A stretch of 64,000 nt of DNA from a virus (taxonomy: Duplodnaviria; Caudoviricetes), in IMG/VR virus record IMGVR_UViG_3300037420_002488, positions 997 to 64,996 of that record. One strand, given 5' to 3'. A program made the position numbers and the translations under genes. Shown piece after piece: positions 2,290 to 60,600 of this stretch. Each line of letters begins with the position of its first letter. Position 1 is the stretch's first letter. Under the pieces are notes generated by a model. The model saw only the letters and a list, made by a program, of their open reading frames with translations, was not told the DNA's origin and ran no database searches.

Positions 2290-2366
2290 AGGCGCGTAGC
2301 TCAGTTGGTTAGAGCACCACCTTGACATGGTGGGGGTCGTTGGTTCGAATCCAATCGCGCCTACCA
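2290..2366 (+). tRNA. trnV: tRNA-Val (GAC)
   Basis: Cloverleaf by hand: acceptor AGGCGCG/CGCGCCT, D arm GCTC/GAGC, anticodon arm CCACC-TTGACAT-GGTGG, T arm GTTGG-TTCGAAT-CCAAT, encoded CCA. Confidence 0.98.
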
Positions 2367-6125: not shown

Positions 6126-6379
6126 TTGTGGTCGCTCCCGCAGCCAGGGCCGCCATTGCAATCGAAGCCTTGTCCGCAGACGGCAGGCATGGCCTGAATG
6201 CTCGATACGCAGCGCACACAAAGGTGGCGTTCGACCTCGCGGGCCGGCTTGACCAACCAGCCGGATGGCTTCGGCCAGTCTTGCCAGTAGATGCCGACAG
6301 CGCGCCGTCCGCTGGACATGTGCTCAAGCGAAAGCACATCGCGGCAAAGGTCGCAGCGGTAGGTGCGGTCAACCGCCAT
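6122..6379 (-). CDS. Small Cys-rich (CxxC) phage protein
   Basis: CDLC and CVRC pairs; coupled to the downstream ORF. Confidence 0.65.
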   Translation of the reverse strand: MAVDRTYRCDLCRDVLSLEHMSSGRRAVGIYWQDWPKPSGWLVKPAREVERHLCVRCVSSIQAMPAVCGQGFDCNGGPGCGSDHK

Positions 6380-6953
6380 CGACCACCTCCGCCGTTGTGA
6401 TGTGGGCCGCCAGGTTCAGCGCGAACTTGCCAGGAGACCACGACAGGACGATCCCGTGCACGGCCTTGTTGAAGGCGTCCATTGCTTGAAGCACTGCATT
6501 TGGCGGTTCATCGACATCCTCGGCGAGTTCGTCGCTGCAATATTCGTGATCAAGTGGGCGGACGTAGTTGGGCGTGCAGATCACCAGTTGAAGGGCGTCA
6601 GCGTTTTGGCCTTCTTCCAGGTAGTCGAGGGCGTCGGCCGGATCATTGAAATACTGATCCCTGGTCTGCGAATAGATCATGGCCTTGCCATCCCAGTCAG
6701 CGCGAGGCATCGCCAGGAAACGCTCGTGGTCCTTCACCGAACAGCAAGGGTCACAGAGCGTCCAGCTCTTGCTGGCGATGCCGTTGCATCGCTGGCAGTA
6801 GCTGCGGGTGCTTCCTGCGTATCGAGCGATGTGCTCGCTGTCCGGCTTGTCGCCATAGAAGAAGCCATCTCGACTTACCCAGCCTTTGATGTCGGTACGG
6901 TAGGAGGCAGCCTCGGGGCTGTCAGGCATGATGATCGGTTCAGAGGTCTTCAT
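6369..6953 (-). CDS. Hypothetical phage protein
   Basis: ATGA coupling at 6950-6953; KGWVSRDG, CQRC/CDPC. Confidence 0.75.
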   Translation of the reverse strand: MKTSEPIIMPDSPEAASYRTDIKGWVSRDGFFYGDKPDSEHIARYAGSTRSYCQRCNGIASKSWTLCDPCCSVKDHERFLAMPRADWDGKAMIYSQTRDQYFNDPADALDYLEEGQNADALQLVICTPNYVRPLDHEYCSDELAEDVDEPPNAVLQAMDAFNKAVHGIVLSWSPGKFALNLAAHITTAEVVDGG

Positions 6954-27751: not shown

Positions 27752-28098
27752 ACATCACACAGGCAAAGATTGAGGGAGTGAAGGCCTTCAGGGCAGGCCA
27801 AGGGCGTGCGCCTGCGCTCAACGGCGCCTTTATGAACGCAATGCACAATGACACCGTGGAGGGCATCAATGCGATGCTGGACGCCTACCTGCACGGCTTC
27901 GACATCGCCAGCCTTGCCAAGGACGCCCCACTGCCCAACATGCCCAGCGTGCTGGAGCTGGCCCGCATCGAACGTGCGGCCATGCTGGATGCCCTGAATG
28001 CCGCCCTCGACCAGGTGGACGCTGAGCGCGCCGAAGGCATCGAGGAACCTGAATGGGCCGCCCTGGCGCGTGACGCCGTGGCCCTGACCGCCGAGTGA
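27748..28098 (+). CDS. Small acidic protein 2 of the cassette
   Basis: AGGAG RBS, ATGA overlap; 116 aa. Confidence 0.75.
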   Translation: MNITQAKIEGVKAFRAGQGRAPALNGAFMNAMHNDTVEGINAMLDAYLHGFDIASLAKDAPLPNMPSVLELARIERAAMLDALNAALDQVDAERAEGIEEPEWAALARDAVALTAE

Positions 28099-28343
28099 TC
28101 GGCATGGCAACCTACTTTGAGGCCGCCCGCGCGGCCGAATTGCTTTTCGGCGTGATGATCACCCACTGCAGTAACCGCCGCAGCGGTGATGGCCCGTTCT
28201 CGGTCTGGGCGTTTGTTCGCGGTACGAACCACGGCAAGGCAGCCGATGCCCTGGTGATCGCCAGCGATTGCCCGGCGATAATCGAATCTGATCCCACGAT
28301 CGACGGTTCGATCGTTCGATACACCCGCAACCCCGGCAATTGA
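28095..28343 (+). CDS. Small protein 3 of the cassette
   Basis: GTGA overlap; 82 aa (or ATG at 28104). Confidence 0.6.
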   Translation: MIGMATYFEAARAAELLFGVMITHCSNRRSGDGPFSVWAFVRGTNHGKAADALVIASDCPAIIESDPTIDGSIVRYTRNPGN

Positions 28344-28346
28344 TCC

Positions 28347-28625
28347 ATGACGCCAGCGAAGAAGACAAGCACCAGAGGCGGCGCCCGCAAGGGCACCGGC
28401 CCCAAGCCAGCCGATGGCGCCACCGATCTTTCGAAGGTCACGATCACGATTGACCCGATCAGCGATTCGATCGCCAAAGACATCGGTGAAGGCGATCGAT
28501 CCCTGGGAATTCGTAGGGCACTGGCGATCGCCAAAGAGGTTCGCAGTTCACAGGTGCGCACACCAGTTCGCAAAAGTGCGCAGGTGCGAACTCGCGCACC
28601 GCGTAGACCCAATGGCGACACTTAA
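28347..28625 (+). CDS. Ribbon-helix-helix-like DNA-binding protein
   Basis: Basic arm RGGARKGTGPKP, strand KVTITID, helices SDSIAKDIG and DRSLGIRRAL. Confidence 0.7.
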   Translation: MTPAKKTSTRGGARKGTGPKPADGATDLSKVTITIDPISDSIAKDIGEGDRSLGIRRALAIAKEVRSSQVRTPVRKSAQVRTRAPRRPNGDT

Positions 28626-28719
28626 ATCAGTATTTGTTTTCAACGCTTGCCTAATGATCAGGGGTTGGTGAAACGTTGAAGCAGATGGCATTGAATTAGG
28701 CACTACAAGGAGGTATTCT

Positions 28720-30387
28720 GTGTTTCCCATATCAGATATAGAGCTTCAATTCGGAGCAACCAAAGACGAGAAGTTGCGCATTCCAAACCCTGGCGTTACT
28801 CTTTTTGTTGGGCCGAATAATTCTGGCAAGAGTCTCGTGTTGCGTGAAATATGGAATGTACTTCGAAATGGCCACGGCGGTGGTCCAGGTCAAATACTGG
28901 CTAGCATGAAATGTGCAATCTCGAGTGCAGAGCGCGAAGATAGTATTATAAGAAGAATACTCGCAGATGCAAAGATTGCCGAAGATTTGAAAGAGGACGA
29001 AAAATTTACTATTCGGGGTACACATCCGCAAATTTTGCTTTCGAAGGCCGAGCTTCGTAAATTCGTAAGGAACCCATTTTCTCTTGGCGAGCGCACACCC
29101 ATGGTTGTGCCTTCGGTAATGCTTGATGGCGCAACGCGACTGCAACTAGTCGGGCAGCAGAGCCTTCCATCACTTTCCTCGCCATCCACTACATTTGGAC
29201 GCCTTGCTACAAATGATGTGGCGCGAAGCCGTTTGCGTGCGGTCCTATTCGAAGCATTTCAAAAGTACATTGTGGTCGACGCGGTTCAATCACCTGGCAT
29301 GGCGTTTCTGAAGTTCGCTCCGACTGTCCCGCCTCCTTCACTTGAAAGAAGCTTTTCAGACGAGGCTTTGGCCTTCTTTCAAAAATGTGTGGGTATAGAA
29401 TTATTCAGCGATGGCGTGCGCGCTTTCACGGGAATTCTGGCCGAATTATTTGCCGGTGATCCTTCAGTTTTAGTGATTGATGAGCCTGAAGCGTTCTTGC
29501 ATCCATCACTCGCGTACCTGCTTGGACGGGAAATCGCTAGGCCAGCGCAATCGGGCTTTCAAAAGAATGTCTTCATTGCAACGCATAGTCCGAGTTTTGT
29601 AATGGGGTGCGTTCAGTCGTCGGCTTCAGTGAACGTAGTTCGGCTCACCTATGCAAACGGACAACCAACTGCGAGAGTGTTGAAAGCATCTGACCTGTCA
29701 TCGCTAATGCGGAACCCTTTACTGCGTTCCGTTGGTGCTATTGAGGCACTTTTCCATGATTTTGTTGTCGTCACGGAGGCGGATGCCGATCGCGCTTTCT
29801 ACGATGAAATCAACCATCGGCTGTTGCTCACCAACGATGAAAGAGGTATTCAGAACTGTCTCTTTCTACGTGCGCAGAACAAGCAAACCGTGGCGGATAT
29901 TGTTAAGCCTTTGCGTGCGCTTGGCATTCCGGCGGCAGGAATAGTTGATGTTGATATATATGAAGAGGGTGGGAAAGTTTGGTCTACCTTCGTTGACGCC
30001 GCAGGTATGGACGCTACAACAGCGGCGGGTAGTGCAATAGTTCGATCTAAGGTGAAAGATCACTTCGTGGCGTCGGGGGCGGTCAAGCCAAAACAGCGTG
30101 GGGGCGTCAACGTTCTAAGCGGTGCCCCTAAAAAGGCTGCAGACGGTTTATTTGACCAGCTTGATGACTATGGGATGTTCACAGTTCGGGGGGGCGAGGT
30201 AGAGCACTGGCTACCCGGCACAGTAAAGAGTTCGGCACATGGCCCAGATTGGCTCATAGAGGCGTTCAAGTCCATGGGTGAGGATCCATCTGATCCAGGT
30301 TACTTAAAGCCTACAGATGGTGACGTGTGGGACTTCATTGCAAAGATTGGTCGGTGGCTACGCAATACATCGCGAAAGGGAATGTGA
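28720..30387 (+). CDS. ABC-ATPase plus TOPRIM protein (OLD-like), candidate defence nuclease
   Basis: GPNNSGKS, FSDGVR, LVIDEPE, IATHSP; TOPRIM VVVTEAD...GIVDVD; AAGGAGG plus GTG; visibly lower GC than the phage core. Confidence 0.85.
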   Translation: MFPISDIELQFGATKDEKLRIPNPGVTLFVGPNNSGKSLVLREIWNVLRNGHGGGPGQILASMKCAISSAEREDSIIRRILADAKIAEDLKEDEKFTIRGTHPQILLSKAELRKFVRNPFSLGERTPMVVPSVMLDGATRLQLVGQQSLPSLSSPSTTFGRLATNDVARSRLRAVLFEAFQKYIVVDAVQSPGMAFLKFAPTVPPPSLERSFSDEALAFFQKCVGIELFSDGVRAFTGILAELFAGDPSVLVIDEPEAFLHPSLAYLLGREIARPAQSGFQKNVFIATHSPSFVMGCVQSSASVNVVRLTYANGQPTARVLKASDLSSLMRNPLLRSVGAIEALFHDFVVVTEADADRAFYDEINHRLLLTNDERGIQNCLFLRAQNKQTVADIVKPLRALGIPAAGIVDVDIYEEGGKVWSTFVDAAGMDATTAAGSAIVRSKVKDHFVASGAVKPKQRGGVNVLSGAPKKAADGLFDQLDDYGMFTVRGGEVEHWLPGTVKSSAHGPDWLIEAFKSMGEDPSDPGYLKPTDGDVWDFIAKIGRWLRNTSRKGM

Positions 30388-30470: not shown

Positions 30471-30501
30471 TGCACTTCTATTCGGTTCGATCAAAAAGAA
30501 T
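30471..30501 (+). promoter_or_regulatory. Putative late promoter 1 (lysis/terminase)
   Basis: TGCACTTCTATT-N13-AAGAAT. Confidence 0.65.
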
Positions 30502-34255: not shown

Positions 34256-34286
34256 TGCACTTCTATTCAAGAGGTCACCGCAATAT
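34256..34286 (+). promoter_or_regulatory. Putative late promoter 2 (portal/head)
   Basis: TGCACTTCTATT-N13-CAATAT. Confidence 0.65.
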
Positions 34287-44975: not shown

Positions 44976-46277
44976 ATGGGACAGAAGTTTGCAAACAACG
45001 TGCTGGGCAGCTTGACCAGCAACATGAGCGCCGTAGTGCTGTCGTTCACCATCGACCCCACGAAGGCCGACGATCTGCCCGCTTTGACGCCGGGCGACTG
45101 GTTCTATGCGGTCATTCAGAAGCTGACCGGCGAGTATGAAATCGTCAAGGTGCAAAAGCGCGATGTCGGTTCAAACGCCTGCCAGAACATCGTGCGGGCG
45201 CAGCAGGGCACGACAGCCCTGAACTTCACCGCAGGGCAGGCGGTGGTCGCGCTACGCGCCACGGCAGCAGACTTTCAGGCGATGATCGACCACATCGAGG
45301 CGCATTCCAACGCACACGTTGCCAGCGCCATCGGCTTCACGCCAGACGATGAATTCGATTCGGCCAACGTGGCGGATGCGATCCATGAGGTGCTGGCCAA
45401 GGCCCGCGATGCCATTGCCGACGCGGCCGAAGACAAGGTCAAGGTCGCCGACCTCATCGCCCAGACCTTTACTTGCTTCACGACTGCCGGGGCATCTCCA
45501 GCTTACACGCTGACCCCAGAGCCTCCGATCGCGGCCTATGCTGACAACCAGCGGTTTCAGATCAAGACCCATGCGGCATCGGCGGACACCGGCAACACGC
45601 TCAATGTTTCGGGGAAAGGAGCAAAGGCGCTGAAGCGATACGACCCAGTTGGGGCGAAGGTAGACGTAACCTTCGGAGCAAACCAGCTATTGGACGTTGT
45701 CTACGACGGTGCCGACTTCGTCATTGTCAGCGGTTTGGCCTCGTATGAGCCCGCCTGCGACTATCACTTCAGCCCGCTGGCAACCAAGCCGCCGGGCACG
45801 CGCCGCCTGCTTGTGCAGGGCCAGGCCGTGGACCTGACGCTCTTCCCGAGTCTGGCGCCCCTATGGTGCGGCGTATCGAAGAACAACACGGCCGACTTCT
45901 ACTACCGCTGCTTGGACCCGAATGCACCCAGCACCACGCGGAACAGCGCGGGTACGTTCCTGAAGCTGCCGCCGCCTGGCTACTTCCTGCGTGTGATGAA
46001 CGCCGGAGCAACTGGATGGGATGCCAACCGTAGCGCCTTCAATCTGCAGGGGGCGGAGGTCGGCTCATTCGGCTACCGGATCATGTCTGACGACGGCGAC
46101 GGCTCGGTGATCACAGATGGCTACCGATCCATTACCGGCATCGATTTGGGCGGCCAGGCGATGACGGCGAACAACGATGCATCGGCGAACAACTGGTCAG
46201 GCTACCGGACAGTGACGGTCACGCCATCGGACACGCGCGGTGTGAACTGGCCAATCTACGTGTGGCTGAGCTACTGA
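44976..46277 (+). CDS. Tail fibre protein
   Basis: KFANN N-terminus, EIVKV...RAQQGT, collar-like PPPGYFLR, terminal DTRGVNWPIYVWLSY. Confidence 0.85.
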   Translation: MGQKFANNVLGSLTSNMSAVVLSFTIDPTKADDLPALTPGDWFYAVIQKLTGEYEIVKVQKRDVGSNACQNIVRAQQGTTALNFTAGQAVVALRATAADFQAMIDHIEAHSNAHVASAIGFTPDDEFDSANVADAIHEVLAKARDAIADAAEDKVKVADLIAQTFTCFTTAGASPAYTLTPEPPIAAYADNQRFQIKTHAASADTGNTLNVSGKGAKALKRYDPVGAKVDVTFGANQLLDVVYDGADFVIVSGLASYEPACDYHFSPLATKPPGTRRLLVQGQAVDLTLFPSLAPLWCGVSKNNTADFYYRCLDPNAPSTTRNSAGTFLKLPPPGYFLRVMNAGATGWDANRSAFNLQGAEVGSFGYRIMSDDGDGSVITDGYRSITGIDLGGQAMTANNDASANNWSGYRTVTVTPSDTRGVNWPIYVWLSY

Positions 46278-46278
46278 C

Positions 46279-48276
46279 ATGGTCGCCATCAACATTGCCC
46301 TGCAGCGCGGCATGGTGCCTCGGCTCACGCCGACCATGCTGGGCGCCAACTACGCTCAGATCGCGCAGAACTGCGACATCACGGCCGGCCGGCTCGACCC
46401 GCTGATGGATCACCAGACCATCGCAACCACCACGTTGGCGCACGTCACCACGCTGAGCCATTACAACGAACAGGGCGTCACAGGGCTGATGACCTGGGAC
46501 GCCGAAGTCGATGTGGCTAAGTCACCAACATCGGGCGACACCCTGGGCCGCGTGTTCTTCACGGGAGACGGCGAGCCGCGCATGACCACTCTGGTGGATG
46601 GCATCCAGGGCTTCGTTGGGCGCCTGCCGCATGCGTGGTTCGTGCTCGGCGTGGTTGCACCCAAGACAGCCCCTACGGTCACGCCCACTGGCGGCAGCGG
46701 CGCCATGGAATCGCGCGCCTATCGCTGGTGCTGGGTCACCCAGTACGACGAACAGGGGCCGCTTTCGGACGCCACAGTGGCAAACGGCCACGTCGATGCT
46801 TCCTGGGATATCGCGGGCTTGGACCCTGCGCCCAAGAACAGCGGCGCCATTGCGAACGCGGTGTCGGTAGGCGGCGTGGTCACACTCGACCTCGACAACT
46901 CATATGGGATCGTGGTCGGCGAGCGCATCAAGGTGGCGGGCACGGCAGGCATCGCAGGTCTCAACGCGACGCACACGGTCATCGAAGTGACCAGCGCCGG
47001 CCTGGTACGTATCAAGCTGGCCGGCGGCGGCGCCTATGCCGGTGGCACATGGCAGCGCGAGGCGCCGCACAACCTTGTTGGCCTGAAGCGCAGGATCTGG
47101 CGCACGACCGGCACGGATACGACCTATCGCATGGTCGATGAGATCCCGGCGGCAACCTTGACGTATTCCGACACTGTCGCCAGCACGGAACTGTTCATCG
47201 CCGCGCCTGACGTCGAGGCCTTGGCGCCGCCCAAGGATCTGCACGGCCTGGTGAACATGCCCAATGGATGCCTGGCTGGCATCTCGGGCAACCAACTGTG
47301 CTTCTCCGAGCCCTTCAAGCCGCACTCGTGGCCCACGGACTATCGCCACAACTTCGCCGCCACACTGATGAAGCTGGTGGTCTGTGGTGCCAATCTGGTT
47401 GTCTTGACTGACTCCTTCCCCTACTACGTGGTGACATCTCAGCCGGGCGTGATCGCCCCAAACAAGATGGCCACGCGCGCGCCGTGCGTCTCGCGTGCTG
47501 GCGCTTGCGACGCCGGAGGATATGCCGTCTATCCATCGCATGACGGCATCTATGCGGCGGATTCATCGGGCGTGCGTAACCTGACCGCGCAGCTCTTTCG
47601 GGCGAAAGAGTGGGCGCCGCTGAGCCCCGAAGCCTTCGTAGCTGTCGTGCACAACAACAAGTACATGGCGCGCCACCCGAACATCGCACGCGACGACTCG
47701 GTGCTGATGCTCGACCTGGCCGAGCCCGATTCCGTGGTGGACGTGCTGTCGGCGCCCGATGCCTTTCACTCGTCGGCGGTGACCGGAGACCTGCTCGCAA
47801 CCTTCGGCAGCGACATTCGAAAATGGGGCGGCTCTGCATCGCGCCGCTTTCAAATGTTGTGGTGCAGCAAGCTCTACACCTTTCCAGGTGGTGCTGAGAA
47901 TTTCGGTGCCGCCCAGGTGCGCGCGCAGTACCAGACGGTAGACGCGGCGGACGTGACGGCCAGTAACGCGGCCATCGTGGCCGAAGGCATCGAACTGCTG
48001 GGCGGCTCGATCGGCGCCGACTCCATCCTGGTGCTCGAGATCAACGGCTCAAGGCTGATCGTGCCCGCGGCCAAGGCCGACAACGCTGTCACGTTCAGCC
48101 TGATCGGCGCCGACGGCGAGATCCTGTGGAGCCGCCCCATCCGTAATGACGAACCCTTCCGACTGCCGGCCGGGTTCATGGTCGATGCAATCGCGGCCCA
48201 GGTGTCGGCCACTTTCCCGATCGACGCAATGGCCTTCGCCACGACCACAAACGAGCTTGCAAGGGTGAATATCTGA
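46279..48276 (+). CDS. Tail tubular B/nozzle-like protein
   Basis: 665 aa, beta-rich; PRL N-terminus, GNQLCFSEP..PHSWP, YPSHDG. Confidence 0.75.
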   Translation: MVAINIALQRGMVPRLTPTMLGANYAQIAQNCDITAGRLDPLMDHQTIATTTLAHVTTLSHYNEQGVTGLMTWDAEVDVAKSPTSGDTLGRVFFTGDGEPRMTTLVDGIQGFVGRLPHAWFVLGVVAPKTAPTVTPTGGSGAMESRAYRWCWVTQYDEQGPLSDATVANGHVDASWDIAGLDPAPKNSGAIANAVSVGGVVTLDLDNSYGIVVGERIKVAGTAGIAGLNATHTVIEVTSAGLVRIKLAGGGAYAGGTWQREAPHNLVGLKRRIWRTTGTDTTYRMVDEIPAATLTYSDTVASTELFIAAPDVEALAPPKDLHGLVNMPNGCLAGISGNQLCFSEPFKPHSWPTDYRHNFAATLMKLVVCGANLVVLTDSFPYYVVTSQPGVIAPNKMATRAPCVSRAGACDAGGYAVYPSHDGIYAADSSGVRNLTAQLFRAKEWAPLSPEAFVAVVHNNKYMARHPNIARDDSVLMLDLAEPDSVVDVLSAPDAFHSSAVTGDLLATFGSDIRKWGGSASRRFQMLWCSKLYTFPGGAENFGAAQVRAQYQTVDAADVTASNAAIVAEGIELLGGSIGADSILVLEINGSRLIVPAAKADNAVTFSLIGADGEILWSRPIRNDEPFRLPAGFMVDAIAAQVSATFPIDAMAFATTTNELARVNI

Positions 48277-48467
48277 TGGCCATCCCAATCGAGCAGGTGC
48301 AGGTTCCCGATCCGGCGCTGCAGCGCTTCATTGACTCGACCAAGCAAGCCTTGGACAAGATCACAGGGCAGCAGGGCGGCGGCGCGACGCTGCGCAAGCT
48401 GCCTGACGATGCGACGCTGGCCGACGTGATCGCGGTCGTGAACCAGCTCATAGACCGCGTCTCCTGA
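48276..48467 (+). CDS. 63-aa tail needle/plug-like protein
   Basis: TGATG coupling; LADVIAVVNQLI coiled coil. Confidence 0.6.
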   Translation: MAIPIEQVQVPDPALQRFIDSTKQALDKITGQQGGGATLRKLPDDATLADVIAVVNQLIDRVS

Positions 48468-48471
48468 CGCC

Positions 48472-48502
48472 TGCACTTCTATCGAAGGCCCTGGCATATG
48501 GT
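48472..48502 (+). promoter_or_regulatory. Putative late promoter 3 (modification enzymes/ejection proteins)
   Basis: TGCACTTCTATC-N13-TATGGT. Confidence 0.65.
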
Positions 48503-48526
48503 CCTGTCAACTGGACAGGAGACACA

Positions 48527-49051
48527 GTGCTCGATTTCGCCATTATCGGTCTGCCTCGCAGTGGCACCGCGTGGGCCTCTAACTGGCTCACCACCGACCG
48601 CACCATTTGCCTGCATGACCCGCTCATGTCCCACACGCTGGATGACCTGGCGGCTTGGGATAGTGGCGGCAAGCTCGTGGGCGTGGCGTGCACCGCACTG
48701 TGGATGTTCCCCGACTGGGTGGCTGCCAACGTCAAGCGTGTGGTCTGTGTTGACCGTGACTTCGAGGAAGTCAATCAGTCGTTGATCGACATCGGTTTGA
48801 CTGCCATGCCGCAATGGTCGCTGGAGCGATTTCAGTCCCTCCCGGGTGCGCGGGTGCCGATGGCTGGCCTGTTCGATCCCGCGCAAGCGGAGGACATCTG
48901 GGTCCAACTTGCGCCTGGCGTGCAGTTCGACGCGCAGCGCCATGGCCTGCTGACGGGCCTGTCCATCAATCCGTACTTTGCTGGCCTGGAGCCAGATCCC
49001 CGCGCCGTCAAGGACTGGGTACGCCGTATTCAGGAGGCGGCGCAGCAATGA
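48527..49051 (+). CDS. Minimal sulfotransferase-family protein
   Basis: 5'-PSB loop IIGLPRSGTAW, CLHDP, 3'-PB-like R-x7-S (DRDFEEVNQS); AGGAG plus GTG. Confidence 0.72.
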   Translation: MLDFAIIGLPRSGTAWASNWLTTDRTICLHDPLMSHTLDDLAAWDSGGKLVGVACTALWMFPDWVAANVKRVVCVDRDFEEVNQSLIDIGLTAMPQWSLERFQSLPGARVPMAGLFDPAQAEDIWVQLAPGVQFDAQRHGLLTGLSINPYFAGLEPDPRAVKDWVRRIQEAAQQ

Positions 49052-49623
49052 AGAACCTTCACCTCATCTCTCGCGGTGCCAACGTGGCGCAGCTTGTGGC
49101 CGAGCTGCACCGTCAGCCGTGGCTGTGGAACCAAGTCACTCTGCGCACGGCGCCCGAGCATTCGCCGCACCACCAGCTTGACGACATCTGGGTGCGCTAC
49201 AACCCGATCGAGAACTACACCGAAGAGGGCGGCCTGGCCGAGTTCAACAAGGAACATGATGCCGAGTGGTATCCGTCCTACTACGCGCTGCCTTCGGTAC
49301 GGCCGCTGGTGTTCGACCTCATGCGACTGGTGGAGGGCGAGCGAATCGGCTTCGTGCTGATCACGCGCATTCCACCTGGCGGCACCTGCTTGCCGCACGT
49401 CGATCGTGGATGGCATGCCGAGTATTACGACAAGTACGCCATCCAGCTCGAATCGGCGCCTGGCCAGACCTTCAACTTCGAGGGCGAGTCCTTGGACGCG
49501 CAGCCGGGCGATGTGTACTGGTTCAACAATCTCGAGAAGCACTGGGTGCTGAACCCCACCGAGCATGACCGCATGACGCTGATCGTGTGTCTGCGCACGA
49601 ATCGCTACGGCAAGGAGGGCTGA
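49048..49623 (+). CDS. Aspartyl/asparaginyl beta-hydroxylase-like 2OG-Fe(II) dioxygenase
   Basis: ITRIPPGG..LPHVD, YWFNNLEKHWVLN, DRMTLIV; ATGA-coupled to the sulfotransferase. Confidence 0.85.
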   Translation: MKNLHLISRGANVAQLVAELHRQPWLWNQVTLRTAPEHSPHHQLDDIWVRYNPIENYTEEGGLAEFNKEHDAEWYPSYYALPSVRPLVFDLMRLVEGERIGFVLITRIPPGGTCLPHVDRGWHAEYYDKYAIQLESAPGQTFNFEGESLDAQPGDVYWFNNLEKHWVLNPTEHDRMTLIVCLRTNRYGKEG

Positions 49624-49625
49624 TC

Positions 49626-50498
49626 ATGCCTGCAGGTTGGGCTGTAGCGGCCGGTGCGATTGGGGGCTACGCACTGAGCACGATGGGCGGTAGCCCAGAC
49701 GACTATTCCGGTGACGTTAGCAAGCAGATCACCAACATGTCGGGGCTTGGCGACAAGCTTAAGGGATTGGGCGATGACAGCAAGTCGGCGCTGGATCAGT
49801 TGGTGGCGCAGTACACCCCGATGTTCCAGCAGCAAATCAATGCGAGCGCGGCCAACCAGGCCAACTATGGCGATCGCAGCGATTCGGAGTGGAATGCCTA
49901 TGTGCGCAGCTTCCGCCCGGCCGCCGAGAAGTTCGCTGCCAACGCGATGAGCTATGACACGCCAGAACGCCGAGAGCAGGTCGCAGGCGACGCCATGGCC
50001 AACACGCGCACAGCCTTCGACCAAGCAGGCCGCCAACTCGACGCAGGGCTGTCATCGGCAATGGTCGATCCCAATTCCGGGGCGGCCATCGCCCAGCGAC
50101 GGCAACTCGCCGCTCAGGGTGCTGCCGCCGTCGCGGCCTCGGGCAATGCCGCGCGTCGGGAGGTGGAAGACACCGGCATGCAGTATCTGAATCAGTCGGC
50201 AGGGCTGGGGCAGGCCGTCGCTGGCAACAGCATGGCGCTGGGTGACCGCTCCGTGCAGGCTGGCAATTCGGCGATCCAGCAAGCCGGGCAGTTGCAGGCC
50301 TTCACCACCGCTCCACAGACCACGGCGGCCGGCCTGTACTCGGCCGCCGGCCAGACCTACGGCAACGCCGGCAACCTGACGTTGGGTCTGCAAAGCGCTG
50401 CCACCGATGCATGGCAGGCCAAGGACTCGAGCACCAAGGACTGGGTTATCGGCGGTGCGTCGCTTGGCGCATCGGCGTACTCGGGCGGCAAGAAGTAA
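49626..50498 (+). CDS. DNA ejection/pilot protein
   Basis: Hydrophobic Gly/Ala N-terminus; A/Q/G-rich amphipathic body; position. Confidence 0.7.
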   Translation: MPAGWAVAAGAIGGYALSTMGGSPDDYSGDVSKQITNMSGLGDKLKGLGDDSKSALDQLVAQYTPMFQQQINASAANQANYGDRSDSEWNAYVRSFRPAAEKFAANAMSYDTPERREQVAGDAMANTRTAFDQAGRQLDAGLSSAMVDPNSGAAIAQRRQLAAQGAAAVAASGNAARREVEDTGMQYLNQSAGLGQAVAGNSMALGDRSVQAGNSAIQQAGQLQAFTTAPQTTAAGLYSAAGQTYGNAGNLTLGLQSAATDAWQAKDSSTKDWVIGGASLGASAYSGGKK

Positions 50499-50507
50499 GG
50501 AGGCCTT

Positions 50508-51689
50508 ATGGGTCAGATCATGGATGGTGCGTATCGCATCGGTGAAATTCTTCGGCAGGGCCGCCTTGATGAGCAGAACGCGGCCTATCGGGCGTCTCAA
50601 GAAGCCAAGCTCGATGAGCAGGCTCGGGCTGCGAAGGCAAAGCAAGATGAGTTAGATCGCGTCGCTGCCCTGGGTAAGCAGGCCGACGCCGCTGGCGCGA
50701 ATGTCCTCAATGGCTATCGCGCTCAGAGCATCCTCGACGGCGGCAACGAGAACGACTACAAGCCCACGATAGGCCACTTGTCGGAGGCTTACGGCGCGCG
50801 TGGCGCGGCATACCTGAATGCTGGGGATATGAAGGGCTACCTCCAGAACCATGCCGAGGGCGCTGCGCTGCGCGCGCAGATGCGCAGCACCTCGGTGCAG
50901 GAGGCCATGTCAACGGGCGATCCCATGAGCGTCATGAAGGCGCTCAATGCCAGCGTGGACAACGGCATCCACCTGCAGGACATCAAGCCCATCAGCATGC
51001 CGTCGCAAGATCCCGAGAGCACGCCAGGGCAGGCCTACAAGGCAACCTACAAATTGCCCGATGGCAGCACGCGCGACGAGATGCTGACGGCCAATGACAT
51101 CCAGAAGCGTGCGGCCTATGTGCTCGCCAATCCCGACAAGATCGGTGAGCAGGAGCTGAAGTACGACTACCTGCGCCAGCAGACGGAAGCCAAGCTCAAG
51201 GAGCAAGACAACAAGGGCGCCAACGACCGCGCATCAACGAAGGTCGAGCAGCAGGAGCGGCGCATCACCGACGGCCTGGAGAACGCGGGCCGCATCAAGC
51301 TGGCGGGCGTCAAGGGCGCCGAGGACCGCAAGACCGACGCCGCAAAGGAAGGCTTGACGCGCACCAGGCCGGTCACGCTTTCGCCAGGCCAGGAAATTCA
51401 GGTGCCCGAGGCGCAGCCCGATGGCCGCTTGAAGTACACGCCCGTGGCCCGCAACAAGACAACCAAGACGGCGCCGGGCCTGAGCAGCAAAGACCTCAAT
51501 ACCGTGGTCATCAACAACTTCGGCGTACTCGATCCGGGCACTGGCAAGCAGGTCGGCAGTGAGACCACGGCCAAGCTCAGCGCAGCCGCTGAACAACTCA
51601 TGGCAGCCAATCCGGGCTTGGGTGCCAACGAAGCCATTGTCGCGGCAGCCGATGACATGGGCCTGTCGATCAAAGCAAAGAGCAAGTAA
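50508..51689 (+). CDS. Internal virion (ejection) protein
   Basis: AAGGAGG RBS; helical; precedes the giant protein. Confidence 0.7.
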   Translation: MGQIMDGAYRIGEILRQGRLDEQNAAYRASQEAKLDEQARAAKAKQDELDRVAALGKQADAAGANVLNGYRAQSILDGGNENDYKPTIGHLSEAYGARGAAYLNAGDMKGYLQNHAEGAALRAQMRSTSVQEAMSTGDPMSVMKALNASVDNGIHLQDIKPISMPSQDPESTPGQAYKATYKLPDGSTRDEMLTANDIQKRAAYVLANPDKIGEQELKYDYLRQQTEAKLKEQDNKGANDRASTKVEQQERRITDGLENAGRIKLAGVKGAEDRKTDAAKEGLTRTRPVTLSPGQEIQVPEAQPDGRLKYTPVARNKTTKTAPGLSSKDLNTVVINNFGVLDPGTGKQVGSETTAKLSAAAEQLMAANPGLGANEAIVAAADDMGLSIKAKSK

Positions 51690-51691
51690 AC

Positions 51692-54600
51692 ATGCCATCT
51701 GGACTGTCCGACGCATCCCCGCGCTATGTCCCCCTCGATGAACAAGACGCCTCGCAGGCGGTAGTGCAGCCGCCGAAGCGCGAAGAGTTAGTCCGGCCCA
51801 AGGGCTACATGGACTTTGTGGCCCGCAACAAGGCCGCGGCCCCAGCCCCTGCGCCACCCAGCCTGACCGAGAAGTTTGTGGGCGGGGCCAAGGATTTGGC
51901 CTCAACCGTTGGCGATGGCCTGTCCAGTGCGGCGGGCTGGGCGAAATCCCAACTTCAGCCCGAGCACATGGACCTGAGCAATGCTGCGGCGCAAACCTAT
52001 CCGCCGATGGGCAACAACGCCGATGTGGGACAGGGTCCGCAAGGCTTCGAGCGGGTGGGCATGGCGCCGTTGAACGCTGCCAAGCCCGAGAACGGCGCGC
52101 CTGCACCAGTCGACGCCGGCCGTTTCAAGGCCATCAAGGCTGAGCTTGGCGCCATGCCGCGTGCTGAGCGCCTGAAGGTTGGCGAAGACCTCAAGGGGTG
52201 GCAGGCCGAAGCCGTCAAGGTGGCGAATGCGCAGCTCGATCAGGAGCAACAGGGCATGGAGTCCCTGGGCATGAACGCCGTGTCACCCACGCTTGAGGGG
52301 CGGGCCGCGCACTACACCTCGCAGGGCGCCGACGGGCCCACGGCGATGGCGCTGGCCAAGCGCGACATGGGCATGGGCGCGGCAGGCGATGTGCTTCGTA
52401 GTGCCGAGCCCCCAACGGCGAAGGGCAACGAGGCCGGCAACCTTGCCACGGACACAGCCGTGTCGCTGGCCAAGGGTGTGAACTCGGTCGGCACCACAAC
52501 TCTGCGCCTGGCCGACATCCTGACGCCGGGCAACAGCGGCGACGAAGACACCATGAAGGCCGCCACGCTGGGCAAGGCCCTTGACTTCTTCCAGGACCGC
52601 GACCGCGAGCTGGACGGCCTGCTGAGCACCAAGGCAAAGGAAGCCCAGCAGGCCGTGAGCCAGGCCAACGGCTTTTTCTCCGCTGCGGGCAAGGCTTTGT
52701 CCACGCGCTCGGGCTTCCTCATGGCGGCCGAGTCTCTGCCGTCCTCGATCGCCGCCGGGGGCTTTGCCATCAAGGCATCTGAGCGGATCATGGCAACCAA
52801 GCTGGCCCAGGCCGGTGTGCAGCGCATCTCGCAGAATGCAGCATCCAACGTGCTGGCGCGTGGTGGCAGCGCGGAGGCAGCCAAGATCGCCGCCGAGCGG
52901 GCAACGGCCATCGCACACACAGCCACTGCCAGCGCGATGATGGCGGCAGCCGACTTTGCCATGGATGGCACGCAGGCCTATGACGACGTCATGAGCGAGG
53001 TATCGCACATGCGCGAATCGTCGTTCGACAACAGCCCGATGTACAAGGAACTGCGCGCGTCTGGCTTGGATCACGCCACGGCCGCGCGCACTGTGGCGAA
53101 GGAAGCTGCGGCCCGTGCCTTCCTGTATGGCGGCGCCATGTCGGCACTCGTCTCGCCGCTGGGCGCGGGCGTCGAGATGCGCGCTGCTGGCAAGGCACTG
53201 GGCATGGCCAACGTGAAGGCCGCAGGCAGCGGGTCCACGGCCCGCACCTTCCTTGCCTCCCTGGTGAACCCCGAGAGCCTGCCGGCTGTGGTGGCCATCG
53301 AGTCGCTGCAGGAAGGTCTGCAGAGCGGAGGACCCCAGGCCGGCCAGAACCTGGCTGTTCGCCAGACTGCAGACAGCACGAAGAGCCTGTCCGATGGCGT
53401 TGCAGCGGCGGCCGGTGCTGGCGCCGCAACCGGCGGCATCATGGGCGGCGGCATGCACATGGTGGCTGGCGGTGATCACGCCGCGCCCGCAGCCGTCCCT
53501 GATGCTGGCCGTGTCCCCGGCCAGCGCGCCGAACCCGTGCTTGCGCCTGCCAAGCACGATGATGGTCCCATCAGCGCTGACGAGGTGCTGGGCGCGGTGC
53601 AGCCTAAGCCCGCCACACCAGTGGATGCCGCTGCCCACGAAGCCGCGACAAGCCCGACCAACGACCGCCCCGAGCCCACGCAGGCCCAGAAGGAAGCGGG
53701 CAACTACAAGCTGGGCCACACGCGCATCGCCGGACTGGACATCAAGATCGAGAACCCTGAGGGCTCGACGCGCAAGGGCGTGGGCGAAGACGGCAAGCCA
53801 TGGGAAACCACGATGCAGGCCCACTACGGCTACATTGCGGGCACCGAGGCGAAGGACGGCGACAAGCTGGACGTGTTCGTCAAACCCGGCACGCCCGAGG
53901 ACTGGCACGGCGCGGCCTATGTCGTTGACCAGGTCGATCCCAAGACCGGCCAACTCGATGAGCACAAGGTGATCTTCGGTGCAGCCGATCAGGCCGAGGC
54001 CGAGCAGATCTACCGCAGCAACTACAGCAGCGACTGGCAGGGCATGGGCGCCATCACGCGGCTACCCATGCCTGCGTTCAAGGCCTGGGCCAAGAGTGGC
54101 CGCCTCGATGAGCCGCTGGGGGACATCTCTGCGCGGACGCAGCAGTCCGTCAAAGCCACACCTGAGCAAGCGGCAACGACCCAGCCCGAGGCCCCGGCCG
54201 TTGAAGTTGCTGCACCTGACGTGGGTGCTAGCAGCGATGCCACGCCCGCAGCAGGCGCACGCGCTGCCGATCCCGCCAGGCCGAAGGCCAGGCCGCCGCA
54301 GCTCGACCCCGAGCACGACACCATGTTGCAGGCATTAGCCAAGCTGGGCGGCATTCGCCGAGATACCGTGGCCAGCGAATTCGGCCTCAAGCCGGAAGAG
54401 CTGCAGCACGCCGTCAGCACGGGCAAGCTCAAGGGCTACCCCTTCCGTAAGACCGGCGGCATGGACATGGACCAGGCCCTGACCGCGATGTCGGAGGCGG
54501 GCTACTTCGATGGCGTACCCGAGGACCAGCACCGCGCCGTGTTCGAGCAGGCCATCCACGATGAACTGGGCGGCCGCCCACGCCTGACCACTCACGGCCG

Positions 54601-57600
54601 CATGCGCGAAGCCGCCCAGGCCTTCAGCGACAACCAGGAGCAGGCGCGTGCCAGCGCCGAGGCTGATGCCCAAGGTCAGGCCGAGCTGGATGCCGAGCGC
54701 GCCGCCATCATGGCGGAAGCTGGCCTCTCAGATGAGGGGCTGTCCGCCCTCACCGACGACGATATCCGGTATGCTGAAAGCGCCGGGACCACGGACGCCG
54801 AGCACGCGAAGAGCATGCGCGCTATGGGGTTCACCGAAGAGGAAATCGCTGATGAGCTCAAACAACGACAAGGCCCGCAAGGACGCGATCAAGAAGGTAA
54901 TGGCGCTGCCGCCCGAGAAGCGCAAGCGCCTGATGGAACTGGAAGCGCAGCACCGCGGGATGAACGAGCCCGAGGTGACGGCCGAGCAGCGCCAGCAGAT
55001 GCTGGACGAATCCAAGAAGGCACGAAGCGCCCCGGCGAAAAAGTAAAGCCGGGCGAACGCCTCAAGCGCGTCTCCGACTATTTCACGCCCGGCAACATCG
55101 TCAAGGGCTACGGCGGGCACAGCCGCGTCATCTCGTTCGACTGGGTGAAGGGAAGCCCGGGCCGGTTCAATGTCAAGGTTCAATCCGTCGTCAAGGATGG
55201 CGAAGGCTGGAAGGTCGATCCCACAGACGCCCGTGAGCGCGTGCATTCCACCCAGCCGACTGACCGCGAACTGAAGGCCGGGCCCGTCGGGCAGTGGAGC
55301 GAGCCAGCCCTGACCAGCCATACCGAGTCTGACCTGCAGGCCAAGGCCGAGCGCGAGGCCGATGGCGTGAAGGCGGAAGCCAAAGCCAAGGCGACCGATG
55401 CCGCCAAGGTGCGCCAGGCCGACGAGGCCAAGGACAACAAGGCCCGCGCCGACGCCACCGTCGAAGACTTCGAGCTGGGCAAGTCGGCTGACGAACAGAT
55501 GTCCGGCATGGGCGACATGTTCGCGGACAAGCCCGGCAAGGCCAACACCATCTTCACCGAAGACGCCGCAGCCGCGGCCCGCGCGCTGCTGCGCAAGAAG
55601 CTGGGCACACTGAACAGCGGCATTGACCCCGAGATTCTGCAAGCCGGCATCACGCTGGCGGGCTATCACATCGAGCGCGGCGCCCGCACCTTCACGGCGT
55701 ATGCAAAGGCCATGGTCGACGACCTCGGCGAGGCCATCAAGCCCTACCTGAAGTCTTGGTATATGGGGGTCAAGTACGATCCGCGCGCGTCGGGATTCGA
55801 TGGTATGAGCAGCGCCGCCGATGTGGAGGGTGCCGATATCCACGCAATCACCGACAATGCGCCACAGGAGACGAAGGCCGATGTATCAGACACCAGCGCC
55901 GATCTGGAACCAGATCGCAAAGACACAACCAGTGCAAAGCGCGTACTGGCGCAGCCTGATGGAAATGAACCAGCAGGATCTGACCAACGCGCTGGGAAAG
56001 CTGGAAAGCGAGCTGGAAGCCAAGGGAGCCGACGCGGCGACGACGCGGGCGTACCTGCTGGTGGCGCCGCTACTGCGCGAGAACGTGGCGATCAGCCGGT
56101 TTCTGGAGGCTCAACAGTCGAGCGACCTGCGCTCGTGCCTGCCGGAAGTGACGTCGATCAACGAGGCGGTGGCTTTGGCGACCGAGGAATTCCAGTTGAA
56201 ACCGTCTCAGCAGGATCAACTCGCGCAACTGCTAAAGACGGACTGGCACAAGGCGTAGCCAACCGGGCCCAGCGCCAAGCACCCAAGGGCTTCAAGGCCG
56301 CCGACCTCGACAACATCCGCGAGACACTGCCCCTGCTGCAGGGTAAGCAGCAGGAGGATGTGCACCGCGCCGAGGTGCGCTTTGCCGAGCCCGACGGCTA
56401 TGGCATTCTGTTCACAAACGGGACCGGCACGGGCAAGACCTACACAGGCATGGGCGTGGTCAAGCGCCTGGCCATGCAGGGCAAAGACGACGTGCTGATG
56501 GTGGCGCCGTCGGACAAGATCATCGAGGACTGGATCACCACCGGCAAGCGCTTCGGGCTGGACATCACCAAGCTGGCAAGCACCAGCGATTCCGGCAAGG
56601 GCCTGGTCATCACGACCTATGCCAACTTCGGCGACAACAAGACGCTGGCTGATCGCTCGTGGGATGGCGTTGTGCTTGATGAGGCGCACTACCTCATGCA
56701 GGCCGAAGACGGCAAGCCCACGCAGGCCCTGAACGCGCTGCGCGCGATCACCATGCACCCGGACGGCGCTCACACACTGCACGCCATGCGCAACCGCGCC
56801 GATCTGGCGCAGCACGATCAATTGCTCAGCGACATGCGCGCGGCCTCGAAGGTGATCGACAGCGGCGCCAGCAAGGACGAGAAGGCCACGGCCCAAGCTG
56901 CGCTGGACGAGCTCAAGCCGAAGTACGAGGCACTGCACGCCAAGCTGGAAGAGGCGCGCAAGGCCATCAAGGTAGAGGTGGGCAATGCGCAAGGCGCCGA
57001 TCGCACCCGCGTCACCTTCCTGAGCGCTACGCCATGGGCCTACGTGCCGACGGTGGACTGGGCAAACGGCTACCTGTTCGACTACAGCGAAGGCCAGCCT
57101 GCCGACGAGACCAGCCGGGGCTACAACGACGGCAGCAACCGTGAGCGCTTCTTCATGCAGCACTTCGGCTACCGGATGCGCTACAACAAGCTCACCCGGC
57201 CGGACGCCAAGGTGAACGTCGGCCTGATGGAGCGCCAGTTCAATGCCTGGCTGCGCAAGTCTGGCGCGCTGTCCGCCCGCACGCTGGATGTGGCTGCCGA
57301 CTATGACCGCCGCTTCGTGCTGGTCGAGTCCGCCATCGGTGCCCGCATCGATCAGGCGCTGAACTGGATCAGTGAACGCGCCCGCGGCAACCGGGAAGAG
57401 AACATCCCGGCCGACGAGGGAGCCCGCGCGCTGGCCAACGTCCTGGACAAGCGCTTCGACTACCTGTCGCGGCGCTATTTACTGGAAGCGATCAAGGCCG
57501 AAGAGTCGATCAAGTACGTGCGCCAGAACCTGGCCATGGGCCGCAAGGTCGTGGTGTTCCACGACTACAAGAAGGGCGGCGGCTTCAATCCGTTCGATCA

Positions 57601-60600
57601 GCCCGAACTGCCTGCAGGCGGCGATGACCTGGTGGCCGCCGAGCGCGTCGAGAAGTACAACGCCGCGTTGCGCGACTTCAAGGCCGAGTTCAAGGATCTG
57701 CTGGCGCATCCTTTCGCCACGATGGCTTCGCCGATCCAAGCCTACCAGAAGGCTTTCCCGAACGTGCTGCTGTTCAACGGCGACGTGTCGCCCAAGGACC
57801 GGCGCGCGGCCGTGGCGAAGTTCCAGACTGATGACAGCGAGCACAACCTGATCCTGGTGCAGTCGGCCGCCGGCAAGGAAGGCATCAGCCTGCACGACAC
57901 CACGGGCAAGCATCAGCGCGTGCTCTACAACCTGGGTCAGCCCACGCAACCCACCACTGCGATCCAGCAGGAGGGCCGCACCTATCGCACTGGCCAGGTG
58001 ACCAATGCCATCTTCCGCTACTTCAATACCGGCACCAACTGGGAGAAGTGGGCCTTTGCTACGACCATCGCGCAGCGCGCCAGCACGGCCGAGAACCTGG
58101 GCATGGGCGAGCAGGCGCGCGCCCTCAAGGACGCCTTCATTTCGGCATTCGAAGAGGCCGATGCCTACCCGCCTGGGCACGAGGGAGAAGGCACGGGCGG
58201 CAAGGCCCGCGACCAAGCTGCCAATGAAGCCCTGACCGAGTTCGACCGCGCAGTGTCGTTCTACTACGGCACCCAGAAGAAGAGCGCCCGCACCAAGGCC
58301 GCCGAGGGCAAGGACTACTTCGCCACGCCCGAGCCGCTGGGCCTGAAGATGGTCGAGTGGATGAACCCCCATGGTGGCGACCATGTGCTGGAGCCCAGTG
58401 CTGGGCACGGCGCCATCGCGCGCTGGCTGCCCGAGAACACCGAGCGCACGGCCGTCGAGCCGTCCACCACGCTGCGCCCGCGCCTGGCCATGGTGTTCGA
58501 CGGCAAGATCGTGGCATCGAACTTTGAAGACCTGCACATCGCCAACAAGTTCGACGGCATCGTGATGAACCCGCCATTCGGCGTGGGCGGCAAGGTGGCT
58601 ATCGAGCACCTGGACAAGGCTGCCAACCACCTGCGTGATGGCGGCCGGGTCGTGGCGCTGATCCCAACCGGGCCCGCTGCAGACAAGCGCTTCGACAAGT
58701 GGTTCCACGACGAAGAGACCCGCGCCAGCAGGCCACTGTATACCGACGAGCGCCTGGGCCCCATCCATGAGGGCGATGTCTTGACGGGCAGCAAGTCCAT
58801 CAACGGCCTGAAGATGATCGTCGGCCATGTGGACAAGCACCCTGATGGGCGACGCACGGTGCGCCCAAAAGGCGAACTGGTCAAGTCGGGCGTCTGGCTG
58901 AACTTCATCGAGTCGGTGCAGCCCGGGCCGCGATCGGAGACCTACCGACCGGCCGAAGGCCTGCACATGGTGGCCGACATCAAACTGCCGCAGGTGGCAT
59001 TTGAGCGCGCAGGCACGTCAGTGGCCTCGCACGTCGTCGTGCTGGAGAAGCTGGCCAGCGGCACCGAGCCGCCCGTGACGCGTCACATCGACCTGTCGGA
59101 CGCCAAGGACATTCAAGAGCTGTTCGAGCGCATCCGCGACTTGTCCTTGCCGCCTCGCTTGAAGCCCGAAACCCAGGAGGGCAGCGCCGATGCCGATCCC
59201 GTGGCCACGACCTTGAAGAGCGCGGTCAAGCCGTCAAAGACTCAGATTGCCGAGTTCGGCCAGGCGCTGGCCGAGAAGCACGGCATGACCATTGCCGAGC
59301 ACACGACGGGCAAGGGCAAGGTGTTGAAGGGCGTGGTGAAATCCGACATCACGCAGGCCCAGGCCAAGGCGGCCGACGCCTACACGTTCAAGAAGGACGG
59401 CGGCTGGTTCATCCGTGCCGAGCACGTTCCCGCGATGCTGGGCGAAGAGATGCCCGCGTTTTCACTTCCGCCCAGTGCCAACGGCCGTGCCGTCGGGAAG
59501 GACGGTAAGGTGCTCACGATTGGCAAGCTGAAAGCTGATCAGTTCGTCTCGCGCATCGCCAGCAACTGGAAGGGGCTGACCCGCACCAACATCGTGGTTG
59601 TCGACTCGTTCGCCGGGCTGCCGCTGGAGATCATCCACCACGGCCTGCGCAGTGGGGGCGTAAAAACGCTTCAGGAAATCCAAGGGGTTGCGCATAACGG
59701 CAAGGTCTATTTGGTGGCCAACACGATCGCCGATGAAAACGAGTTGCAGACAGCGCTCTTTCACGAGGCCTTCGGTCACCTTGGCGTCAATGCCGTGATG
59801 GGTGCCCGCACGGTCGGCACGCTGTCGTCGCTCATGGATTCTATGGGTGGTTTAAAGGCCATCGAGGTCATGGCCCGGAAAATTCGGACATCCGACACCG
59901 AAACGGTTTGGGATCGCCTGCAGCCCTACATCCGCAACCTTGGCGATCAGGTCGATTCGAAGATGGGGCGCGCCGTGATCGCCGACGAGTTCCTGGCCTT
60001 CGCCGCCCAGGTCAACGACCAGTCGGTGCTGGCCAAATTCAAGGGGTACCTCTCGGATGCGAAGGCGGGCATGGCGCGCTTCGCCCGTGCTGCTGGCCTG
60101 AAGGGGCTGGCCGCGCGCCTGGAGCGAATGACCGATGGCGACGTCGCGGCCTTCGTGCGCGACGCCCGTCGCGCCATCGTCACCGGCCAGGCCCCGCGCA
60201 GCGGCCGGTATGTGATCGCGCGCGCTGATGGCGACAGCATGCCGTCAGCGCACAGCTTGCGCGCGGCCGTAGCCACGTCGCCCGCCGACGGCGCCACCCT
60301 GAAGCCATCGAGCGGCATCCTCGACACGATCTTGCGCAAGGCTGGCGGCACTGTGGTGGCGCGCCTGACCTCGCCAGGCTACACGCGCTTGATCAGCATG
60401 ATGGACCGGGCGCTGGAGTCCTACGGCGGCAAGGCCTACGACTATGCCAAGTCGGGCCTGGTGTCCGATCGCGGCCTGAGCGAGCCGTATATTGAAGCCC
60501 GCGCGGACATGCGCACGGCCATCCGCCGCGGCGCGCGCGAGACCAAGACCATCATCGACAACCTGCAGAGCCTGGACCGCGCTCAGTCACGTATCGCCTA

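Follow-up and report, generated by a model that had tools for sequence, protein, structure and literature searches.

Sulfotransferases of the TPST type carry a P-loop with the motif GxPRSGTT and a catalytic Glu about 20 residues past it, and the PF05118 family of 2-oxoglutarate (2OG)/Fe(II) oxygenases counts LpxO among its members. Genes for 2OG oxygenases in phages usually go under the heading of 'auxiliary metabolic genes' of unclear role. Phage sulfotransferases have been filed under the same heading, and their role has likewise been stated as unclear (PMC10580990). In podovirus infection, no part is understood less well than the ejection proteins. No paper was found in the literature that connects either sulfotransferases or PF05118 enzymes with ejection or internal virion proteins, nor was oxygenase or sulfotransferase chemistry on virion proteins found described. 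To our knowledge, no modification of ejection proteins by either type of enzyme is known. Here we describe two adjacent open reading frames (ORFs), ORF1 and ORF2, that represent these two enzyme types directly ahead of putative ejection protein genes in a 64,000-nucleotide stretch of viral DNA (the window; positions 997 to 64,996 of the IMG/VR record IMGVR_UViG_3300037420_002488).

An original prediction, made from the sequence alone, had placed two coupled enzyme genes between the tail genes and three ejection genes of the window; both ORFs, the motifs quoted for them and their placement were found as described. ORF1 encodes a compact protein of sulfotransferase fold and ORF2 a compact 2OG/Fe(II) oxygenase. 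Among the loci examined, it is the oxygenase that forms the constant element, bound to the ejection operon. We propose, tentatively and at somewhat less than an even chance, that ORF1 and ORF2, as a translationally coupled accessory module belonging to the ejection operon, hydroxylate and O-sulfate a shared, late-made target, for which the ejection proteins are the likeliest candidates.

Identity of the two encoded enzymes

ORF1 contains the motif G8-L-P-R-S-G-T14 and, in R77 and S85, an R-x7-S motif. In its AlphaFold model (predicted local distance difference test (pLDDT) 93), the phosphosulfate-binding (PSB) loop P10-R11-S12-G13-T14-A15-W16 comes after strand 4-8, while R77 follows strand 72-76 and S85 lies within helix 79-88, as in the geometry of a 3'-phosphate motif. 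The family comprises 1667 representatives at E<=1e-3 among 1.84 billion clusters. An alignment of 165 representatives (149 of the 150 best listed matches and 16 first matches) revealed PRSG[TS][TA]W, R-x7-S, H30, [DE]31 (H[DE]P) and R138 to be near-invariant, with R11 present in 145/146, S12 in 142/146, G13 in 122/146, [TS]14 in 145/147, T/A15 in 140/147, W16 in 145/147, R77 in 164/165 and S85 in 148/163 members. Structural alignment of the model against 48,161 PDB representatives (VIA-align, independent of Foldseek) placed sulfotransferases at all of ranks 1-5, namely the olefin synthase sulfotransferase domain (OLS-ST; 4gox, Z 10.2), TPST2 (3ap3, 9.6), TPST1 (9.5), a tick TPST (9.4) and Cpz8 (8.7), with 143-151 residues aligned. 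The best five matches among predicted viral structures (BFVD) are phage 'sulfotransferase family' proteins (top E 1.4e-10, TM-score 0.69), and PF13469-bearing viral clusters are among the neighbours of ORF1 in a language-model atlas. Searches with the ORF1 sequence of PDB chains and NCBIfam returned nothing meaningful. The family is restricted to phages, with 10 matches in 185,579 species genomes. PHROGs assigns ORF1 to phrog_10855 ('hydrolase', 1e-40).

We consider it quite probable that ORF1 is sulfotransferase-like, with sulfotransferase-type chemistry; most likely it would use 3'-phosphoadenosine-5'-phosphosulfate (PAPS) and move sulfate to a hydroxyl. No APS (adenosine-5'-phosphosulfate) kinase is encoded by the 65-kb provirus itself. 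The alternative that ORF1 is a P-loop kinase or NTPase appears very unlikely. It draws on the GenBank names of ORF1 homologues, which are mostly 'putative nucleotide triphosphate hydrolase' (one is 'similar to sulfotransferase'), on the Z scores of about 8.4-8.9 that P-loop kinases reach against the model, and on a Pfam Sulfotransfer_3 match that covers the P-loop alone at E 0.1. However, the position of the Walker-A Lys is occupied by T in 117, S in 28 and L in 2 of 147 aligned members, and by K in none, ORF1 has the R-x7-S motif, sulfotransferases rank first with some 20 more residues aligned than the kinases (~125-130 residues; Z 8.6 or less in the PDB-wide comparison), and the viral structural neighbours are all of the sulfotransferase family. 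Fold and motifs thus uphold the original sulfotransferase call over a kinase-like P-loop. A more specific assignment of the family, as a 5-hydroxymethyluracil DNA kinase or another part of thymidine hypermodification, was considered and rejected, as the Walker-A Lys is absent and no such gene cluster surrounds the homologues in phages PaMx11, PaMx28 and PaMx25.

ORF2 is securely a 2OG/Fe(II) oxygenase, and its chemistry is most likely that of a hydroxylase. The residues H117-V-D119, H165 and R175 (HxD...H...RxT) are invariant in 36 relatives, and the model (pLDDT 95) consists of a bare double-stranded beta-helix (DSBH). ORF2 itself passes PF05118 narrowly (23.9 bits vs a cut-off of 22.6); the same family is found in the precomputed annotation of most of its relatives, and fusion proteins containing the domain, described below, score 31-35.5 bits. 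Its structural neighbours are tied: Cpz10, the beta-hydroxylase of caprazamycin biosynthesis (PMC9814697), reaches Z 15.6, followed by proline 3-hydroxylase (15.1), proline cis-4-hydroxylase (14.6), AspH (14.2), PHD2 (14.0) and ALKBH/AlkB enzymes (13.2-13.6). Since oxygenases of free amino acids, nucleoside peptides, proteins and nucleic acids tie in this way, no substrate class can be assigned to ORF2. Of the 'Asp/Asn-hydroxylase' originally proposed, the oxygenase therefore stands, but the Asp/Asn specificity is unsupported and amounts to a family label. Helices in the model are at most 11 residues long and offer no candidate transmembrane helix, as read from the model and not from a dedicated predictor.

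Pairing, partner exchange and the slot ahead of the ejection genes

The two genes are closely joined to the first putative ejection protein gene, E1. ORF1 starts with GTG, preceded by a GGAG ribosome-binding site, and the ATG of ORF2 overlaps the stop codon of ORF1 as ATGA. The ATG of E1 comes 3 nucleotides past the stop of ORF2, with its ribosome-binding site, AAGGAGGG, located within the 3' end of ORF2. This ATG is most likely the E1 start; the M-P start is kept in 66/68 E1 homologues. Because of the overlap and the 3-nucleotide gap, we regard ORF1, ORF2 and E1 as one tightly coupled unit.

To place this unit in a wider context, loci were drawn from IMG/VR, which holds 75 loci of the ORF1 family and 536 of the ORF2 family. 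Genes in these loci (L followed by a number) were called by a simple ORF rule, neighbouring families came from BLAST clustering and purpose-built hidden Markov models (HMMs), and trees were obtained by quick search. With profile HMMs across all fetched loci, both genes were detected within ~6 kb of each other in 50 loci; in every one of these they are direct neighbours on one strand, and the sulfotransferase (ST) precedes the oxygenase in 48. The lineage of the window keeps the entire block of a 665-aa protein, a ~65-aa protein, ORF1, ORF2, E1, E2 and a giant protein even where ORF2 identity is as low as 57-68%. Some ~10 changes are required to explain how the paired state is distributed over the ST tree, and well-supported branches force at least 3 of them; a very distant ST clade (L012, L140 and L150) is likewise paired. 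The pairing is therefore not a single inherited accident, which bears out the co-occurrence on which the original prediction depended. The reversed order, oxygenase then ST, was seen only in L107 and L178, the latter a prophage of the cultured strain Noviluteimonas gilva HX-5-24 and hence a possible experimental system. On one further contig (L031/L097; IMGVR_UViG_3300033486_000008) the two genes are ~11 kb apart.

The two activities may also have merged into single proteins. P0137 (L187:793-2016), of 407 aa, carries the oxygenase behind a 215-aa domain in which a P-loop, GVxC[TN]G and R-x7-S follow each other in the right order. This N-terminal domain scores 0.96-0.97 in the atlas to PF13469-bearing viral sulfotransferase clusters; its comparison with the ORF1 family by hhalign was not significant (E 0.16). 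On the atlas score and motif order, P0137 is a probable sulfotransferase-oxygenase fusion.

An E1 homologue lies within ~2 kb downstream of the oxygenase in 93/119 oxygenase loci (~78%). In a T7-like contig the slot recurs with the nozzle gene on one side and genes for gp14/15/16-like internal virion proteins on the other; it is also used in a contig with a P22-type stabilisation protein. In Pseudomonas phage PfAn1 the oxygenase is found upstream of annotated internal virion proteins, with a GNAT acetyltransferase as its neighbour. Two oxygenase-family genes stand in tandem in the same slot in L132 and L133 (~6001-7100).

The partner of the oxygenase varies. In a sample of 80 loci seeded with the oxygenase (the best 80 of the 536 by similarity to ORF2, including near-duplicates), 58 have a mini-cupin next to the oxygenase, 15 an ST and 7 neither of the two; the corresponding numbers across all 119 loci are 59, 50 and 10, and no locus has both. 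Mapped onto the oxygenase tree, the partner has changed type at least 3-5 times. The mini-cupin, the commonest partner, is a protein of ~120 aa with four invariant His residues (HxHxxxH...H; for example L010:8578-8931 and L092:5603-5995), and it too is found fused: P0086 (L188:1983-2900), of 305 aa, joins a cupin to the oxygenase (hhalign probability 99.7%). The mini-cupin also occurs alone, between tail-tube/nozzle and internal virion protein genes, in 61 cultured podoviruses, including Ralstonia phage phiAp1 (gp43; L185:5905-6357) and Vibrio phage VPMS1 (MS_018; L186:4911-5405). Annotations in the cultured phages call the mini-cupin a 'short tail fiber' or 'tail fiber adhesin', which seems questionable for a metal-binding cupin.

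Prophage setting and control elements

The record is classed in IMG/VR as a provirus (98% complete), and the window represents an integrated podovirus-type prophage next to a tRNA-Val gene (Table 1). No nucleotide-level similarity of the window to cultured phages was found. The late genes are all on the plus strand and encode terminase, portal, major head protein, adaptor-like proteins, a 1170-aa fibre, a second fibre and a 665-aa protein of phrog_511, which has homologues in Stx2/933W-like, Vibrio, Ralstonia and Burkholderia podophages. A 63-aa ORF, with a counterpart of 62-70 aa in relatives, separates the latter from the enzyme pair. Downstream of E1, the putative ejection protein E2 gave no family match in Pfam or PHROGs-type searches of the window proteins and is syntenic in L004, L005 and L009. 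The presumably injected polyvalent protein E3 contains InPase (1.4e-50), ResIII/Helicase_C/Strawberry-notch (Sno) C-terminal SF2 helicase and MTS methyltransferase domains, and relatives have giants of 1400-4000 aa with InPase/LPD domains in its position. Elsewhere in the window, a 555-aa ORF with weak PHROG matches to ABC-ATPase-like families falls in the stretch of lowest GC content (GC 0.53, 28001-30000).

Table 1. Positions of the enzyme pair, its predicted active-site residues and other features of the window
Feature	Position	Strand	Remarks
tRNA-Val	2290-2366		adjoins prophage
Integrase ORF	2431-3639	-	
555-aa ORF	28720-30387		
11-mer TGCACTTCTAT, copy 1	30471-30481	+	
11-mer, copy 2	34256-34266	+	
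Fibre gene	44976-46277	+	upstream of the pair
665-aa protein	46279-48276	+	phrog_511 ('internal virion protein', PHROGs match); upstream of the pair
63-aa ORF	48276-48467	+	
11-mer, copy 3	48472-48482	+	heads the operon
Inverted repeat	48503-48519		CCTGTC-aactg-GACAGG
ORF1	48527-49051	+	174 aa; compact sulfotransferase-fold protein; phrog_10855
ORF1 PSB loop P10-W16	48554-48574		
ORF1 H30-D31	48614-48619		
ORF1 R77	48755-48757		
ORF1 S85	48779-48781		
ORF2	49048-49623	+	191 aa; compact 2OG/Fe(II) oxygenase; PF05118
ORF2 H117	49396-49398		
ORF2 D119	49402-49404		
ORF2 H165	49540-49542		
ORF2 R175	49570-49572		
E1	49626-50498	+	first ejection/internal virion protein; 290 aa from the M-P start; phrog_8003 'virion structural protein'
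E2	50508-51689	+	second putative ejection protein; 393 aa
E3	51692-62965	+	3757 aa; polyvalent protein, presumed injected

The repeat copy that had been noted ahead of the pair is real. The 11-mer TGCACTTCTAT has exactly three exact copies in the window, all on the plus strand, with ~0.46 matches expected by chance at up to one mismatch, and the third copy, at the head of the operon, is a candidate late-promoter or activator site. Scans for sigma-70 elements at this site and for terminators were both empty, and relatives showed no conserved 11-mer ahead of the pair. The first copy comes right behind a terminator-like hairpin with a T-run. Because the second copy overlaps the GTG (34255) listed as the start of the portal ORF, this ORF may truly begin further downstream. 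An inverted repeat lies between the third copy and ORF1; its 3' arm overlaps the ribosome-binding site of ORF1, which may allow control of translation.

A proposed role in ejection protein modification, and known systems

According to the proposal outlined above, ORF1 and ORF2 would be made late, together with the ejection proteins, and, before packaging, both enzymes would work on a single common target produced in the same period, the likeliest being the ejection proteins. ORF2 would hydroxylate the target and ORF1 would O-sulfate it. We infer both the target and any placement of the sulfate on a hydroxyl made by ORF2. A broader version, in which many podoviruses use a 2OG oxygenase with an interchangeable partner (a sulfotransferase, a four-His mini-cupin or a GNAT) to modify ejection proteins before packaging, and in which these proteins are hydroxylated and O-sulfated in the present phage, we regard as rather doubtful.

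Several results weigh against the proposed role. No computed result points to any particular substrate, and E1 homologues share no conserved residue or motif as a modification site, with just the M-P start conserved. As to the enzymes, the Z margin of sulfotransferases over P-loop kinases is only ~1-1.5 for ORF1, which also stays under the cut-off of PF13469 (13.2 vs 27 bits; match confined to residues 5-33). An ST is found directly upstream of E1 without the oxygenase in 14 loci, and two of these records, which are 100% and 91% complete, have no oxygenase anywhere. The ST family is furthermore encoded in the early/replication regions of 50 cultured siphoviruses, none with the oxygenase (PaMx25, NP1, PaMx28, PaMx11, Ab18, Epa5 and others), where it sits among genes of DNA metabolism (DenV, NrdJ, UvrD, ligase and polymerase); the acceptor of the ST therefore need not be an ejection protein. 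ST and cupin each hold the slot alone in some genomes; the slot could also be a place that tolerates insertions immediately downstream of a promoter. Because genomes with only the ST or only the cupin exist, each component can work without the others, and the acceptor of the ST is independent of ORF2.

These observations bear most directly on the strictly sequential pathway of the original prediction, in which the hydroxyl made by the oxygenase is the very one that the sulfotransferase esterifies; the sulfate could then be kept as a charged cap or be used as a leaving group, as in the 'activating' sulfotransferases of CurM/OLS. Tight coupling, recurrent pairing and the probable ST-oxygenase fusion speak for such a pathway, as do the best structural matches, which are an activating sulfotransferase acting on a beta-hydroxyl (4gox) for ORF1 and the beta-hydroxylase Cpz10 for ORF2. 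These matches are, however, tied with many other enzymes, and hydroxylation followed by sulfation does not hold as an obligatory sequence, given that the ST occupies the slot in two near-complete oxygenase-free genomes and stands alone in 50 cultured phages, and that the mini-cupin is the commoner partner of the oxygenase (58 vs 15 in the 80-locus sample). We therefore consider the strict pathway unlikely.

Two further explanations place the chemistry elsewhere. ORF1 and ORF2 could be cargo enzymes, packaged and injected with the ejection proteins to act on host cytoplasmic targets, or on the surroundings of the incoming DNA, at the onset of infection, in the manner of the enzyme domains in the adjoining polyvalent protein. 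The genes indeed lie inside the internal/ejected-protein block, next to the injected-type multi-enzyme of 3757 aa, the gene order of T7-like genomes puts the slot in the place of a small internal virion protein (which we take to be the position of T7 gene 13), and the cofactors 2OG, Fe, O2 and PAPS are cytoplasmic; yet neither sequence bears a packaging mark and the ST family is also encoded in siphovirus early regions, so that we see this explanation as improbable. Alternatively, the target might not be a virion protein at all, but phage DNA before packaging or a molecule of the host envelope (lipopolysaccharide (LPS), lipid A or a receptor) late in infection. AlkB/ALKBH-type nucleic-acid oxygenases near the best ORF2 scores, the siphovirus ST homologues among DNA-metabolism genes and the family shared by ORF2 with LpxO are consistent with such targets. 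Placement by the ejection genes is, however, conserved across unrelated podovirus lineages, no other DNA-hypermodification genes were seen nearby, and the ORF2 model has no long helix for a membrane anchor; DNA or envelope targets seem quite improbable to us.

If modification of ejection proteins by ORF1 and ORF2 were true, it would represent a new post-translational modification system of virion proteins, in which sulfation possibly serves packaging, passage through the tail or evasion of host recognition. Were the enzymes instead injected as cargo, they would form a new class of early-acting, host-modifying effectors. The lock of the oxygenase family to the ejection operon in several podovirus lineages, with alternative partners and fusions, provides a concrete and testable place to look, and the minimal sizes of the sulfotransferase (174 aa) and the oxygenase (191 aa) make them attractive for structural and enzymological work.

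The enzymes come from familiar superfamilies. To all appearance, neither their conserved module nor its association with ejection genes has been described before. By position, the pair resembles the small proteins encoded at the site of T7 gene 13 and virion-borne modifying enzymes such as T4 Alt and the P1 Dar/polyvalent proteins, being encoded within or alongside the genes for internal or ejected proteins; no sequence or fold relation to these was found, though no search aimed at one was made. ORF1 and ORF2 also adjoin a polyvalent protein of injected type, and their own packaging would be hypothetical. ORF2 shares with AspH, LpxO, proline cis-4-hydroxylase, Cpz10 and proline 3-hydroxylase the DSBH core, the HxD...H motif and an Arg 10 residues past the distal His (Z 14-15.6), but it consists of this core only (191 aa), without the tetratricopeptide repeat (TPR) domain of AspH or, judging by the model, the membrane segment of LpxO. 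For ORF1, the ST domains of CurM and olefin synthase (4gbm and 4gox; Z 9.5 and 10.2) are the best structural matches, with a Z margin of <1 over other sulfotransferases. Their acceptor is a beta-hydroxyl, as would suit a sulfotransferase that works behind an oxygenase; unlike ORF1, these domains reside within polyketide synthase (PKS) megasynthases, act on acyl chains bound to an acyl carrier protein (ACP) and are followed by a thioesterase, and nothing similar is present here. TPST1/2 and the PF13469 family differ from ORF1 in their larger catalytic domain (~280 aa or more vs 174 aa), and ORF1 differs from TPST in having no recognisable acceptor-binding elements, in falling below the Pfam threshold and in its restriction to phages. 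They have in common the fold (148 residues aligned with TPST2, 3ap3, at Z 9.6) and the R-x7-S 3'-phosphate motif; with TPST, ORF1 further shares the PRSGT of the P-loop, and its acidic/His pair ~20 residues past this loop occupies the candidate equivalent of the position of the TPST catalytic Glu.

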